From positions 77,719-137,339 of the forward strand of contig CAYHLH010000001.1 in NCBI GenBank assembly GCA_964357525.1: a stretch of DNA of 59,621 nt, written 5' to 3'. The position numbers and the translations under genes were made by a program. How positions within the stretch are numbered: the stretch's first letter is position 1; each line of letters opens with the position of its first letter. This stretch comes from an uncultured Candidatus Saccharibacteria bacterium. GTDB lineage: Bacteria; Patescibacteriota; Minisyncoccia; UBA6257; GWB1-50-10. Below, one piece after another: positions 28,189 to 59,621 of this stretch. The notes beneath the pieces are model-generated. The model was not told where the DNA came from, ran no database searches, and was given only the letters and a program-made list of their open reading frames with translations.

Positions 28189-29265
28189 TTAAAAAATCCT
28201 CCGCACGTCCCCGATTGTCACGAGAACCATGAGTACGAGAAGCAGGAAAAGCCCCGTGAGATTCACGGCAATCTGGAGCTTTCGCGACACCGGACTCCCC
28301 TTCACGCGCTCGATGAGCGCCATCACGATGCGCCCGCCGTCCAGGGCCGGAAACGGGAGGAGATTGAGAACCGCGAGGTTCACGGAGATGAGCGCCAAGA
28401 GATCGAGGAAGTACACGAAGCCGAGCGCCGACGTTTCCTTCGCGACGATGACGATGCCGACGGGACCCGCGATGTTCTCCGTCGCGGTGCCGGGCGAGGT
28501 GAAGAACTTCCACGCCATGTCAAAGAACCCTGCGACCACGAGCTTGCTCACTCCCCAGGTCTTCGCGGCGCCGACGCCGATGCTGTCGAAAAATCCCGAC
28601 GGCGCCGCTCCCACCTCACTGATATAGACCCCCAGGGAACCCTGCCCTTCCGCCGGATTTTCCCTCGCGAGGACGGAGGTTTCCCGCGTCTCATTCCCCC
28701 GCCGGAGCGTGATCGCCACTTCCTTCCCCCTCGAGGACCCGGCCCCCGCAATGAAGGCCCCCGCGTCCACGGGGTCCTTGAGGACGGTCTCGCCGAACCT
28801 CGCCTCGAGGACGATGTCGCCGACCTCGAGGCCCGCTATCTCGGCCGGAGAACCCTCCTGCACCCCGCTCACAACAAGGTGCTCAGGCACGCCCACGAAC
28901 GCGACGCCGCAGAACACGAGGAAACCGAAGAGGAAATTCATGAATACTCCCGCCGCGAGCACGGCGATTTTCTTGCCCACGGGCTGGTTCACAAAGCTGC
29001 TTCCGGGATTCTTTTCCTCCTCGCGGTGCTCCTCATCCGTTTCCTTTTCCTCGCCGTCCTCCCCGAGGATATGCACGAATCCGCCGAACGGCAGGGCGTT
29101 CACGCTGTACACCGTGCCTTTCCTCCTCTTTCCGAAAAGGCGTGGCGGAAATCCGATGCCGAACTCGAGGACCCTAAGCCCGAACGCCTTTGCAACAGAA
29201 AAATGCCCCAGTTCGTGGATGAAGATGAGGAACGAAAGCGCGAGGATGACGAGTACGGTGGTCAT
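28189..29265 (-). CDS. rseP: site-2 protease RseP (M50 zinc metalloprotease with PDZ)
   Basis: HELGHF and NLLPFPALDGG motifs. Confidence 0.88.
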   Translation of the reverse strand: MTTVLVILALSFLIFIHELGHFSVAKAFGLRVLEFGIGFPPRLFGKRRKGTVYSVNALPFGGFVHILGEDGEEKETDEEHREEEKNPGSSFVNQPVGKKIAVLAAGVFMNFLFGFLVFCGVAFVGVPEHLVVSGVQEGSPAEIAGLEVGDIVLEARFGETVLKDPVDAGAFIAGAGSSRGKEVAITLRRGNETRETSVLARENPAEGQGSLGVYISEVGAAPSGFFDSIGVGAAKTWGVSKLVVAGFFDMAWKFFTSPGTATENIAGPVGIVIVAKETSALGFVYFLDLLALISVNLAVLNLLPFPALDGGRIVMALIERVKGSPVSRKLQIAVNLTGLFLLLVLMVLVTIGDVRRIF

Positions 29266-29464
29266 GCCGATTTTATTCGTGAACGCAGTGAACGACTATA
29301 AAATCGAGCACCCCGCACATATTTTGCGGAAATACCATTATTTTTAGAAATGAATTTTCCGAACATTAAAATCTTTTTTCTCATATAAAATTGGGTTAAT
29401 AAAATATGTGCGGGGTAGAGTTTGATATTCAAAAATCTTTCGCTTCTCAGCTCGGATTTTTGAA
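29266..29464 (-). repeat. E1 intercistronic element, copy a (frr | rseP)
   Basis: Hairpin B 29268-29276/29298-29306; IR arms 29310-29325/29401-29416 (perfect 16 bp); hairpin A ~29421-29468. Ends in GGCATG. Confidence 0.8.
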
Positions 29465-33360: not shown

Positions 33361-33366
33361 TGAGCC

Positions 33367-33678
33367 ATGCCCAGTAATACAACTTCCAGAGTGCACTTCC
33401 ACTATATTTATGTACTGGAAAGCATGAAAGATGGAAATCGCTACATTGGCTATACCGCTCACTTGAAAGAAAGGATGGAAGCGCACGAAAAAGGCAAGTC
33501 ATTTTCCACTGCACCCCGCAGGCCTTTTTGTCTTGTCTATTTTGAAGGATGCACGAACGAAAAAGACGCCAGACGCAGGGAGCATTATTTAAAGACAACC
33601 CAAGGTCGCAGGTTTTTAGGATTACGGCTTCAGGAACGCCAGCGTGCGAAGAAAGCGTCTGGCGTCACTGGAAGTTGA
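33367..33678 (+). CDS. GIY-YIG nuclease-family protein (UPF0213-like)
   Basis: 103 aa. YIYVLES..GNRYIGYT...R...H motif order of the GIY-YIG domain. Confidence 0.8.
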   Translation: MPSNTTSRVHFHYIYVLESMKDGNRYIGYTAHLKERMEAHEKGKSFSTAPRRPFCLVYFEGCTNEKDARRREHYLKTTQGRRFLGLRLQERQRAKKASGVTGS

Positions 33679-33688
33679 TATACTGGGG

Positions 33689-35044
33689 ATGCACATAACC
33701 CTCCGGCGTCTCCTTTTCTGGCTTTTCTTCCTCGCCTTCTTCGCGGTAGGGACGCTTTTAATCGTGAAAACACAAGGATTCGTCATTGATTGGGAAAATC
33801 TCGCGCTCGTGAAGACCGGCGGGATATTCATCAAGGCATTGCCTTCCGACAGCAGACTTTTTCTCGATGGAGAGCCGTACAAAAAGCCCGCTTCGCTCTG
33901 GAACAGCGGCATCCTCGTCAAAGACCTCCTCCCGAAAACATATACGGTTCGGGTGGAGCGCGACGGACGCTACCCGTGGGAGAAAACTCTTGTCGTCTCG
34001 CCGGGGCTCGTCGCTTCCGCGAGCGCCATCCGCCTCTTCGAGAAGGAACCCGAGATGACGCCCATCTCGTCGCGCATCCTCGAGGATTTCTGGCTCGTGA
34101 AGGGGGGGATAGTGGAAAAATCGGGAGGTAAACTGCACTTCGGCGGCGCCTTGATTCGCGGAAGCGGCGTGCTTGAGGCGCTCCCGGACCGGAGCGAGCT
34201 CATTACGACCGACAAAGACCTGAATTTCTTCTTCGTCTCGCTCTCCGACCCGGAAACGGCGACGAATCTCCGCACGCTTTTCGCTTCCCTCGCGCAAACC
34301 CGCGGGTTTTTGAAAAGGAACGTCCGCGTGGAGAGCGTTGCGCTCCACCCGTTTTCGCCCTCCGCGGTCGTCGTGCGGTACGACACGGGTGTTTTCCTTA
34401 TGGACGTGAAAAAGCTCGAACTACAGAAAATAGCGGAAAATGCCGGAAAAGGGGCCCTTTTCACGGCCTCAAACGAGGCATATTGGGTGACCTCCTCGAG
34501 CATATCCGCCTACAATCTCCTTTTGGGCGTCCTTTCCGATATCCCCCTTTCTCCACTGGCCGACCCGCGGTCCTTCAGGACCGACCGGGGGGGGTCGATT
34601 TTCTTCTACAAAAGCGGCTCCGGAACGCTCTACGCTTTTGGCAGGACCAACGCCTCCTCGACGGAGATCGCGGCGCGCGTCCTCGATTTCTCGCTCTCCG
34701 ATGACGAAAAGCTGCTCTTTATCGTCCAGAACGACGGTCACGCGCTTTTTCATTATCTCGCGGAGGGCACGGGAGACGTGAACGTTCCCAAGGGGGTTTC
34801 CCGTTCGTTCCCCCTTCCGAAAAGATTCTCCGCTCCATCGGCCGACGTCGTGTGGGCGTCCGGCATTCCATTTCACCTCTTCTTCGTGAAGGAAGGAACG
34901 CTCGTCGGTGCGGAGACCGACATTCGCGCTCCGGTTGCCGCATACCCGCTCGCGGAGGGCGTGGTGAAAGCCGCATACCGCGACCGGAAATTCGTCATTC
35001 TCACTGACGACGGGACGCTTACGGAGCTTTCCTTGGAGTTCTAA
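33689..35044 (+). CDS. membrane-anchored PEGA-domain protein
   Basis: Start at MHITLRRLLFWLFFLAFFAV. PEGA-like segment ALPSDSRLFLDGEPY...YTVRVERDGRYPWEK. Confidence 0.6.
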   Translation: MHITLRRLLFWLFFLAFFAVGTLLIVKTQGFVIDWENLALVKTGGIFIKALPSDSRLFLDGEPYKKPASLWNSGILVKDLLPKTYTVRVERDGRYPWEKTLVVSPGLVASASAIRLFEKEPEMTPISSRILEDFWLVKGGIVEKSGGKLHFGGALIRGSGVLEALPDRSELITTDKDLNFFFVSLSDPETATNLRTLFASLAQTRGFLKRNVRVESVALHPFSPSAVVVRYDTGVFLMDVKKLELQKIAENAGKGALFTASNEAYWVTSSSISAYNLLLGVLSDIPLSPLADPRSFRTDRGGSIFFYKSGSGTLYAFGRTNASSTEIAARVLDFSLSDDEKLLFIVQNDGHALFHYLAEGTGDVNVPKGVSRSFPLPKRFSAPSADVVWASGIPFHLFFVKEGTLVGAETDIRAPVAAYPLAEGVVKAAYRDRKFVILTDDGTLTELSLEF

Positions 35045-37426: not shown

Positions 37427-37651
37427 GCCAACGATGTCTAAATTTTCGAGCTCATCCGTGGCGAAGAAAATTTAGCCACAATCATGAGCACCCGCCCAAG
37501 TTTTTGGGTATTTGCCGACATTTTTACTGTTGAATTTTTTATCTTGTTATCCATTGTATTTATCATATTACCTGAAAATTTGGGCGGGTAAGGTTTGATG
37601 ATGGAAAAATGTTCGCTCATTATCATTAGCTCCATTTTTCCAATCAAGCCC
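37427..37651 (-). repeat. E1 intercistronic element, copy b (rpoA | rplQ)
   Basis: Hairpin B 37438-37447/37466-37475; IR arms 37490-37505/37575-37589; hairpin A 37595-37647, closed by TAAGG (rpoA stop)/CCTTA. Ends in TTGGCATG. Confidence 0.8.
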
Positions 37652-38413
37652 TTACTTTTTCGTTTTCTTCGCTTTCTTCTCGGTCTTCGCTTCTTCCTTG
37701 CCTTTCATCTCGATGTGCGTCACCTCGAAGTCCCCGATGCGGTCGAAATGGTCGTGTAGGATGCTGATGGCCTTGTGAAGCGCTTCCGAGGGGCTGATGC
37801 TGCCGTCGGTCTTTATATCGAGCGAGAGGCGGTTATAGTCCGTGCGCTGCCCCACGCGCATGTTCTCTACGGACACCGCGACGTTCTCAACCGGCGAGAA
37901 TATCGCGTCGAGGACGATGGTGCCGACGAGGAGCCTCTCGAGCCGGCGCGATTCGGCGGGAACGTACCCGAGGCCCTTTTCCACCACGAGCTCCATGTCG
38001 AGCTCCGCGGCCTTCTTCGTGAGCGTGCAGAGATGGAGGTCCTTGTTCACGACCTGCACGAACGGGGTCGATTGTATGGCGGCGGCGGCGACCTCTCCCT
38101 CGCCTTTTGCCTTGAGGGTCAGAGTCTGCGGTTCGTCGGCGAGGAAATGGAAGCGAACCTTCTTGAGGTTCAGCGTGAACTGTATGATGTCCTCCATCAT
38201 TCCGGGGAGCGCCGAAAATTCGTGGTTCACCCCCTTGATCTTTATCTGGGTGACGGCGGCGCCGGGGATCGACGAAAGGAGCACGCGCCGGATTGCGTGG
38301 CCGACCGTCGTCCCGTACCCCGTGTGGAGCCCCTCGATGTGAAAAACGCCGAGATTGTCCTTCTCGGAAATTTTCTTTATTTCGACCGAATCGCTCAAAC
38401 GCACATACTGCAT
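37652..38413 (-). CDS. rpoA: DNA-directed RNA polymerase alpha subunit, N-terminal domain only
   Basis: 253 aa. The alpha-NTD pattern runs through ISILHDHFDRI, then a short K/E tail and a stop. No CTD is present. Confidence 0.9.
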   Translation of the reverse strand: MQYVRLSDSVEIKKISEKDNLGVFHIEGLHTGYGTTVGHAIRRVLLSSIPGAAVTQIKIKGVNHEFSALPGMMEDIIQFTLNLKKVRFHFLADEPQTLTLKAKGEGEVAAAAIQSTPFVQVVNKDLHLCTLTKKAAELDMELVVEKGLGYVPAESRRLERLLVGTIVLDAIFSPVENVAVSVENMRVGQRTDYNRLSLDIKTDGSISPSEALHKAISILHDHFDRIGDFEVTHIEMKGKEEAKTEKKAKKTKK

Positions 38414-39047: not shown

Positions 39048-39251
39048 GCCAATGTTATTTGCGAACAACGTGAGCAATGATAACATTGCGCACCCGCCCA
39101 AGTTTTTGGGATTCTGCCGACTTCTTTATCATTGTTATTTTCATGATGGTTTCAATTGTATTTACCCATATAATTGCAAAAATTTGGGCGGGTAAGGTTT
39201 TGTCGCCCCGTGAGATGGCGACGGCCGCCTATCTCACTGGGGACAAAGCCC
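39048..39251 (-). repeat. E1 intercistronic element, copy c (rpsK | rpsD)
   Basis: Hairpin B 39050-39058/39080-39088; IR arms 39092-39107/39178-39193; hairpin A 39198-39247 plus TAAGG/CCTTA. Ends in TTGGCATG. Confidence 0.8.
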
Positions 39252-39704: not shown

Positions 39705-39705
39705 A

Positions 39706-40089: not shown

Positions 40090-40274
40090 GTGCCAATCTT
40101 ATTTGCGAGCAGTGCGAGCAATCATAAGATTGAGCACCCGCCCAAGTTTTCGGGCTCGCGTCGACTTCCTCACTGCTGATTGTTTCATTATAGTATTCAT
40201 TGTTTCTGTTAGTGTTGTTTGAAAATTTGGGCGGGTAAGGTTTTGTACCTCCAGCTACGCCGGAGACAAAGCCC
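40090..40274 (-). repeat. E1 intercistronic element, copy d (rpmJ | rpsM)
   Basis: Hairpin B 40094-40102/40124-40132; IR arms 40136-40150/40222-40236; hairpin A 40236-40277, which includes the rpmJ stop. Ends in TTGGCACATG. Confidence 0.8.
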
Positions 40275-47540: not shown

Positions 47541-47720
47541 GCCAATCTTATTTGCGAGGTACACGAGCAATCATAAGATTGAGCACCCGCCCAAGTTTTT
47601 GGACCTTTGTTGCGGATTGTATCATTGCGTATGTCTGCATATGTCTAAAAATTTGGGCGGGTAAGGTTCGGTAATCAAAAATCTTTCGCCTCCGGCTCTG
47701 ATTTTTGAACCGAGCCCTTA
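47541..47720 (-). repeat. E1 intercistronic element, copy e (gtrA-like | GT2)
   Basis: Hairpin B 47543-47551/47573-47581; IR arms 47585-47600/47647-47662 (46-nt loop); hairpin A 47662-47720, which lies inside the last 15 codons of the upstream ORF. Ends in TTGGCATG. Confidence 0.8.
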
Positions 47721-59568: not shown

Positions 59569-59621
59569 GAGTTAATTGGTCCACGAGCAGCTTCCGCTAC
59601 CCGTGCCTTGTTACGACTTCG
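59569..59621 (-). rRNA. rrs: 16S rRNA, 3'-terminal ~50 nt (gene continues beyond the window)
   Basis: The rc reads GAAGTCGTAACAAGG-CACGGGTAGC-GGAA-GCTGCTCGTG-GACCAATTAAC, i.e. the universal 1492 region plus helix 45 with a GGAA loop. The exact 3' end is approximate. Confidence 0.8.

Follow-up and report, generated by a model that had tools for sequence, protein, structure and literature searches.

A short open reading frame maintained in an intergenic repeat of Patescibacteria without an anti-Shine–Dalgarno sequence, and its possible role in translational coupling

Introduction

Translational coupling of neighboring genes is exemplified by trpE–trpD, rpmI–rplT, and the coat and lysis genes of MS2. 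Coupling in prokaryotic operons has been described by Huber et al. (2019, 2023; PMC6728339, PMC10666635) and reviewed (PMC12548453). Termination–reinitiation falls off sharply with the distance between stop and start and is nearly gone at approximately 20 nt (PMC10666635). Coupling can also operate through the unfolding of structure at the downstream start, and RNA-unfolding and scanning models have been reviewed together (PMC12548453). Loss of the anti-Shine–Dalgarno (anti-SD) sequence has been published for a subgroup of the Parcubacteria, and roughly half of the Parcubacteria lack it (PMC9297842).

Here, we describe a repeated three-hairpin element, designated E1, in a 59,621-nt stretch of DNA (hereafter, the window) from a groundwater Patescibacteria (Parcubacteria-type) genome. 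E1 is 170–230 nt long and fills the intergenic space from a stop codon to the next start codon. An initial annotation of the window had proposed that a mini-ORF inside each E1 copy is translated and delivers ribosomes to the adjoining gene, an interpretation that the analysis below partly supports.

The mini-ORF resembles the first member of a coupled gene pair in that it ends a few nucleotides before the next start, within the limit of approximately 20 nt, and in that this start lacks an SD sequence and lies against a helix that an upstream ribosome must melt. Unlike in coupled pairs, however, the upstream ORF is not a gene but a frame of 21–54 codons without peptide conservation, carried by a repeated and insertion-polymorphic element; its gaps are +5 to +16 nt, whereas typical pairs overlap by −4 or −1 nt, and the host has no anti-SD. 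With leader peptides and uORFs (ermCL–ermC, tnaC, secM–secA, and mgtL), E1 shares a short ORF upstream of a masked start, and hairpin remodeling is proposed for E1 as well. It differs from them in lacking a conserved stalling peptide or a regulatory codon run (pN/pS approximately 1), and in that one cassette stands before unrelated housekeeping genes (rpsM, rpsD, rplQ, rpsG, rseP, and a GT2 gene), so that it looks constitutive and generic rather than like a sensor.

REP/MITE-type intergenic repeats are co-transcribed. Like REP/BIME/REPIN sequences, the Correia/NEMIS elements of Neisseria, ERIC, BOX, and RUP, E1 is multi-copy, hairpin-forming, intergenic, and polymorphic in presence between close relatives; unlike them, it is strictly gene-oriented, spans exactly from stop to start in 23 of 28 copies, and carries an ORF of conserved phase. 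No description of a relay ORF in REP/MITE-type families, or of an element like E1, was found in the literature searched, and we know of no relay ORF in any of the families named above. Rickettsia palindromic elements are likewise palindromic repeats whose survival depends on an open frame; they are translated within the host protein, whereas the E1 ORF is a separate cistron placed between the stop of the upstream gene and its own stop before the next AUG.

Results and Discussion

Structure of E1 and its copies in the window

From the upstream stop codon onward, E1 comprises helix A, a GC-rich inverted-repeat stem with an A-rich loop, and helix B. The inverted repeat ACCCGCCCAAATTTT / AAAACTTGGGCGGGT closes a loop of 38–75 nt. 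The window contains five copies, all on the minus strand, as follows.

29266–29464, minus strand: E1 copy a, between frr and rseP; arms CCCCGCACATATTTT / AAAATATGTGCGGGG with compensatory changes
37427–37651, minus strand: E1 copy b, between rpoA and rplQ; longer, b-type helix B
39048–39251, minus strand: E1 copy c, filling the gap between the stop codon of rpsK and the start codon of rpsD; A-rich loop of 68 nt
39179–39193, minus strand: 5′ arm of the copy c inverted repeat, ACCCGCCCAAATTTT
39092–39107, minus strand: 3′ arm of the copy c inverted repeat; the mini-ORF frame reads it as ..QKLGRV..
39048–39091, minus strand: helix B of copy c, with the mini-ORF stop codon in its 3′ strand; ends directly at the rpsD AUG
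40090–40274, minus strand: E1 copy d, between rpmJ and rpsM
47541–47717, minus strand: E1 copy e, between a GtrA-like gene and a GT2 gene

The minus-strand genes near these copies are rpsM, rpsK, rpsD, rpoA (253 aa), rplQ, rplM, and rpsI, with rseP and the GT2 gene further off. In the minimum-free-energy fold of copy c, the last base pair of helix B adjoins the downstream AUG. Both strands of this copy fold into three hairpins (sense, −77.4 kcal/mol, z = −5.2; antisense, −88.1 kcal/mol, z = −7.1), and the antisense strand folds better by 10.7 kcal/mol because the A·C mismatch between the arms on the sense strand becomes a G·U pair. Across E1 copies, at least six arm types occur, all of them complementary, including CCCGCCCAAATTTT, CCCCGCACATATTTT, CCCCGCCCTCATT, CCCCATTAGATA, CCAAGCACATAA, and the G·T-type CCCGCCCAAGTTTT. 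The arms thus covary, which indicates that base pairing rather than arm sequence is conserved. Helix B occurs in two types. The ends of the element, TAAGGGCTT... and ...TTGGCATG, are not inverted repeats of one another. A search of the whole window against Rfam 15 returned one tRNA at the gathering score and no match for E1.

Several further features of the stem and loop were recorded. A single A·C stem mismatch on the sense strand, pairing as G·U on the antisense strand, is present in three unrelated arm types (at 39092–39193 of the window and in other copies, with L187 and L181 among the loci); the arm types of L002 and L142 show the reverse asymmetry, and the remaining copies have A-T, C-G, G-C, or T-A at this position. 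An invertible promoter, which the reversed asymmetry had brought under consideration, was rejected: the loops are not reverse complements, and the center position merely covaries. The loops of copies b, c, and d and of L129 and L181_1 contain two or three repeats of a 12-nt periodic unit, ATGAWAAAYNCA, which look like slippage-type duplication; this unit adds to the in-phase ATGs of these copies.

The inverted-repeat hairpin also occurs by itself (CCGCCCAAATTTT..loop..AAAACTTGGGCGG), with neither helix A nor helix B. It lies within a 23S rRNA gene (L141, 5865–5964, in a 3956-nt LSU match) and within RNase P RNA genes (L149, 4110–4209, identified by Rfam; L128 and L152, identified by eye), with nested copies in L128, which has three copies in all. 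The hairpin therefore seems to be a mobile module tolerated by structured RNAs. At the contig ends of L132 and L159, two E1 copies run on after the 3′ arm with GTGCTCGATGTTATGGATAGCAGCGAGGGAGAAATGAAAA instead of helix B; this sequence holds an SD-like GAGGGAG 3 nt before an ATG in the mini-ORF frame, and both contigs end there. In L181 (4049–4310), an E1 copy lies at the infA junction; beyond it, the consensus (...GATTGGCATG) opens no more than an ORF of 40 codons (MNPVNEEFFQ...) ahead of the real rpmJ, so that this copy may head an unannotated small ORF or a remnant.

The host lacks an anti-SD, and E1 is polymorphic among its relatives

The 3′ end of the 16S rRNA gene lies at the edge of the window.

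59570–59621, minus strand: 3′ end of the 16S rRNA gene, reading GGACCAATTAACTC beyond helix 45, without the CCUCC anti-SD

The 16S tail GGACCAAUUAACUC (3′ end ...GUGGACCAAUUAACUC) lacks CCUCC, and GGAG or GAGG is present at −20 to −4 of 10 of the 70 gene starts in the window against a background of 15%, so SD motifs are not enriched. The initial annotation had described an organism without a 16S anti-SD, and both observations agree with it. SD motifs are likewise at background in all E1-bearing and related loci; none precedes the main ATGs of the E1 copies, and the downstream cistrons lack an independent strong ribosome binding site.

Identical contigs occur in Hainich aquifer metagenomes (L122, L136, and L170), and relatives identified through S11 are labeled Minisyncoccia, Jorgensenbacteria, Harrisonbacteria, or "Patescibacteria group". 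Comparison with syntenic relatives (L182/L183 over 20 kb, L184, L186, L189, L190, L191, and L192) revealed no E1 at the five sites, where the genes are joined by junctions of 0–26 nt. These tight E1-free junctions identify E1 as a recent, polymorphic insert. A relative with approximately 97% identity lacks copy d and has CAAAA in its place, and this population carries a different 182-nt sequence at the site of copy c and a 222-nt insert between rpsM and rpsK (window position 39705). The junctions occupied by E1 also vary among L181, L187, and the window. Since presence and absence vary between close relatives, turnover must be fast. E1 is thus a multi-copy palindrome with presence/absence polymorphism at orthologous sites, in the manner of REP/MITE-like repeats. 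The genes that follow it (rpsM, rpsD, rplQ, rpsG, rpsK, rplM, rseP, GT2, and others) belong to no single functional class.

Two neighboring features of the window were examined alongside E1. The rpoA gene behind which copy b is inserted encodes 253 aa and has no alpha C-terminal domain; its counterparts in relatives (L181–L192) encode 247–253 aa, and the truncation is therefore lineage-wide and not an artifact of the E1 insertion. A 103-aa GIY-YIG gene lies within a 24-nt inverted repeat, CATGCCCAGTAATACAACTTCCAG / CTGGAAGTTGATATACTGGGGATG, which begins and ends on ATG; this separate tiny element is unrelated to E1 in sequence.

37652–38413, minus strand: rpoA, 253 aa, without the alpha C-terminal domain
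33366–33691, plus strand: GIY-YIG gene, 103 aa, within the 24-nt inverted repeat

Each window copy contains a mini-ORF that ends shortly before the main start

In every window copy, a frame that opens in the loop runs through the 3′ arm into helix B and terminates in the 3′ strand of that helix.

29273–29338, minus strand: mini-ORF of copy a (the divergent copy), 21 codons and TAA; 7 nt to the rseP ATG
29262–29384, minus strand: second ORF starting in the loop of copy a, out of frame with the first, 40 codons; its TGA overlaps the rseP ATG as ATGA
37438–37566, minus strand: mini-ORF of copy b, from the first loop ATG, 42 codons and TAG; 11 nt to the rplQ ATG
39055–39144, minus strand: mini-ORF of copy c, 29 codons and TAA; 7 nt to the rpsD ATG; second in-frame ATG at 39132
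40099–40200, minus strand: mini-ORF of copy d, 33 codons and TAA; 9 nt to the rpsM ATG; second in-frame ATG at 40188
47548–47640, minus strand: mini-ORF of copy e, from the first loop ATG, 30 codons and TAA; 7 nt to the GT2 ATG

The five frames and peptides that the initial annotation had read from the window were recovered exactly at its coordinates, as were the stop-to-ATG distances of 7, 11, 7, 9, and 7 nt (copies a–e). Its choice of start holds for copies c and a, whereas the frames of b, d, and e open earlier, at 37566, 40200, and 47640. Copy b contains a further in-frame ATG at 37554, its frame is open from an ATG at 37635 (65 codons), and all eight ATGs of the element are in the mini-ORF frame.

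The mini-ORF is present in most, not all, of the E1 family

To define the family, a metagenome scan with the two E1 arms yielded 60 loci, and more relatives were added through S11 synteny. A scan of genome contigs with a loose pattern gave, among the matches listed, mostly chance hits, with L002, L012, and L081 being real; the scan of viral contigs with E1 produced one uninformative match. A profile search over the gathered DNA resulted in 53 matches representing 28 distinct and complete E1 copies of the stop-to-start form, all in related groundwater Patescibacteria. Each of the 28 runs up to the ATG of a long ORF in the same orientation. In 23, an upstream ORF of 50 codons or more has its stop codon where the element starts; no such ORF was found for the remaining five, partly because the upstream gene is shorter (rpmJ).

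We scored a copy as ORF-positive when an ATG in the loop opened a frame of at least 20 codons with its stop 0–16 nt before the main ATG. By this criterion, 21 of the 28 copies carry the ORF, in several organisms and with at least six arm types and both helix-B types. The copies were distributed as follows.

ORF-positive (21 copies): window copies a–e, L124 (between rpsL and rpsG), L129, L159a, L132b, L181 (two copies), L187 (four copies), L188, L140, L142 (three copies), and L002/L172
Stop 24–25 nt upstream of the main ATG (two copies): L164 and L160
No ORF (five copies, about four lineages): L167, L168/L145 (with the duplicate L179), L012/L180, and L154/L176

The claim that every E1 copy has a mini-ORF accordingly holds for the window and its close relatives and fails for the family as a whole, and copies without this frame, which had been named in advance as evidence against the uORF, do exist in the last group, with the stops of L164 and L160 displaced upstream. 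The L168/L145/L179 lineage has no ATG at all in its loop. We considered whether the ORF-less lineages belong to SD-using hosts; all of these hosts are SD-less. Since the ORF is missing from several lineages in equally SD-less hosts, it is not obligatory for expression downstream of E1.

Among the 21 ORF-positive copies, the gaps are 5–16 nt, the lengths 21–54 codons, and the stops TAA (15) or TAG (6). A relative with an 80% identical S11 (L187) has four E1 copies of three arm types, each with the ORF. In L002/L172 and L140, the frame is shifted relative to the arms, yet the ORF stops 5 and 7 nt before the ATG. The mini-ORF was also predicted independently by gene callers in L181 and L187.

The encoded peptide shows no sign of selection

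Codon-level conservation had been suggested as a check of the uORF, and the comparison over many copies gave no coding signature. In six close pairs, pN/pS was 1.02 for the ORF frame; the two alternative frames gave 0.70 and 0.55. In the aligned loops of c, d, b, L124, L129, L132, and L181_1, the variable columns at codon positions 1, 2, and 3 numbered 9, 7, and 7. The varying codons of a Ser-Ala pair, previously taken as synonymous variation, came from non-homologous positions. The accompanying caveat, namely that peptide similarity might merely reflect the conserved arms, was borne out by the pN/pS of 1.02: conservation is confined to residues that the arms and helix B dictate, and the N-terminal, loop-encoded halves cannot be aligned between loop groups. 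A search of 5.8 billion proteins found no homologue of the mini-ORF peptide beyond the ORF of the window itself.

A functional small basic protein is hardly credible on these data. The length of 21–54 codons, the richness in K, R, and N, and the calls by gene finders in two assemblies would suit such a product; the amino-acid-level signature expected of a small-protein gene is absent, and we rejected this reading on the basis of the pN/pS and of a database match confined to the window's own ORF. Frames of this kind appear in some annotations as hypothetical proteins, a practice that should be avoided. Similarly, the unalignable loop halves and the pN/pS show neither the conserved stalling peptide nor the regulatory codons of a leader peptide. 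A pN/pS of 1.02 indicates that the peptide is not the selected product, and that what has been kept is an open, phased, and correctly terminated frame, which is the pattern a coupling uORF should show.

Frame, ATG phase, and stop position are maintained beyond chance

Chance levels were estimated by dinucleotide-preserving shuffles. When only the loop was shuffled, a qualifying ORF arose in 10–58% of trials; when the loop and the unit of arm plus helix B were shuffled separately, it arose in 2–14% of trials per copy. Loops were clustered at cutoffs of 66–75% identity (shuffled loops reach a mean of 0.52 and a maximum of 0.68), and the ORF was present in 8 of 12, 10 of 15, or 14 of 19 clusters, where approximately one would be expected (P = 7e-8 to 9e-14). 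Because the copies share homologous arms and a homologous helix B, a well-placed stop was inherited a few times rather than 21 times.

The phase of the loop ATGs pointed in the same direction. Of 45 loop ATGs, 38 share the frame of the ORF and only 3 fall in the +1 frame. Among cluster representatives, the proportion is 28 of 34 (P = 6e-9), and it remains 13 of 19 after each defining ATG is removed (P = 0.002); some in-phase ATGs of the c/d/b loop group follow the 12-nt repeat unit, which, with the homology of the arms, inflates the apparent independence of these counts. In the copies checked, no loop ATG opens a frame past the main ATG, save for the ATGA overlap in copy a. Relative to the +2 frame (34 stop codons), the ORF frame (27) is not depleted of stops. 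The frame, the ATG phase, and the stop position are maintained across diverged loops, arms, and helix-B types.

The mini-ORF might nevertheless be a by-product of structure: an A-rich and T-poor loop tends to be open, the arms and helix B (with their TAA or TAG) are kept for folding, the ancestor happened to be open, and translation either does not occur or has no consequence. The pN/pS of 1.02 without a third-position excess, the stop counts, and the several E1 lineages without the ORF would all be expected in this case, as would the lone inverted-repeat hairpin in 23S rRNA and RNase P RNA, where an ORF is impossible. A by-product leaves the phase bias of the ATGs unexplained, however, including the 13 of 19 that persist without the defining ATGs; it also does not account for the failure of loop ATGs to overrun the main start, for an ORF retained, against a null of 2–14%, through six arm types, two helix-B types, and loops that cannot be aligned, or for the re-phased ORFs of L002 and L140. 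We therefore consider it rather unlikely.

Translation could also be maintained for another reason, either to cover an insert of approximately 200 nt with ribosomes as protection against Rho-type polarity or RNase, or to neutralize AUGs that would be harmful if read across the gene start. The same conservation of frame and phase fits these possibilities, E1 resides in ribosomal-protein and other housekeeping operons, and the lack of loop ATGs reading over the main AUG is what selection against interfering starts would yield. Neutralization alone, however, would tolerate early-stopping frames equally well, and the +1 frame holds almost no loop ATGs; moreover, neither protection nor neutralization requires a stop 5–16 nt from the AUG. 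We regard both as improbable.

A third possibility is that E1 is a portable promoter, with transcription from the AT-rich loop and the "ORF" serving as a 5′ leader, perhaps with a leaderless start at the loop AUG. A TATAAT-like hexamer (5 of 6 positions) lies 4–10 nt upstream of the in-frame loop ATG in 7 of the 21 copies, where approximately 2.5 would be expected. The other 14 copies have no −10-like box, there is no consistent −35/−10 pair, and a scan for the consensus found 3 weak sites where 1.1 would be expected, none recurrent between copies; a recurrent sigma-70-type promoter in the loops was rejected on this ground. The covariation of arms and helices favors a transcribed structure of which the 5′ arm is part. 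A portable promoter is thus very improbable, and a leaderless start of the mini-ORF is possible for some copies.

A possible relay of translation across the inserted repeat

We propose that the mini-ORF is a translated relay that restores translational coupling across the inserted repeat, a reading to which we give an even chance of being correct. In the E1-free relatives, the junctions of 0–26 nt are SD-less, and the downstream cistrons presumably rely on short-range translational coupling, which the insertion of approximately 200 nt (range, 170–280 nt) would break. E1 would compensate by means of a short ORF, whose in-phase AUGs, one to three in number, would be presented in a large, A-rich, single-stranded loop closed by the GC-rich stem and would be of the open kind usable by SD-independent initiation, the start mode assumed here. 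Ribosomes would then translate the 3′ arm followed by helix B, would thereby open the helix adjoining the AUG of the gene, and would terminate 5–16 nt upstream of that AUG. The downstream gene would start by termination–reinitiation, by initiation at a start region that is unfolded for a short time, or by both. The peptide would be irrelevant, and the act and phase of translation would be what counts.

The stop-to-start distances are in the range of coupled pairs, with 5–16 nt in 21 copies and the ATGA overlap in copy a. The gaps are nevertheless positive, while the best-studied termination–reinitiation pairs overlap (−4 or −1 nt). The ORF is absent from four or five E1 lineages, and the copies fall short of full independence. 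In addition, the −10-like box that a leaderless start would use accompanies only 7 of 21 copies, and initiation at a loop AUG without an SD is assumed. With respect to the termination–reinitiation route put forward at the outset, the gaps within approximately 20 nt and the maintained frame thus speak for it, and the ORF-less lineages against it as a general rule; translation of the mini-ORF, and the dependence of downstream expression on it, are inferred from sequence.

A broader version is that E1 is a portable, SD-independent expression cassette, with stem-presented loop AUGs as the ribosome entry, a content-free relay ORF, and release 5–16 nt before the gene's AUG, and that it spread by duplication or insertion in anti-SD-less Parcubacteria to drive or re-couple the translation of the most highly expressed operon-internal genes. 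We put this forward tentatively, as possible but doubtful. If it is true, E1 would be a mobile genetic element favored by selection because it carries a device for translational coupling.

The relay itself would be a further variety of the known coupling mechanisms, packaged in an intergenic repeat. We know of no earlier example of an intergenic repeat that repairs the translational coupling it breaks. If the relay is real, a selfish or duplicative repeat carries the means to repair the coupling that it disrupts, which would explain how such repeats could invade ribosomal-protein operons. It would also provide, for a subset of genes, a concrete answer to how start codons are chosen inside the operons of anti-SD-less Parcubacteria.
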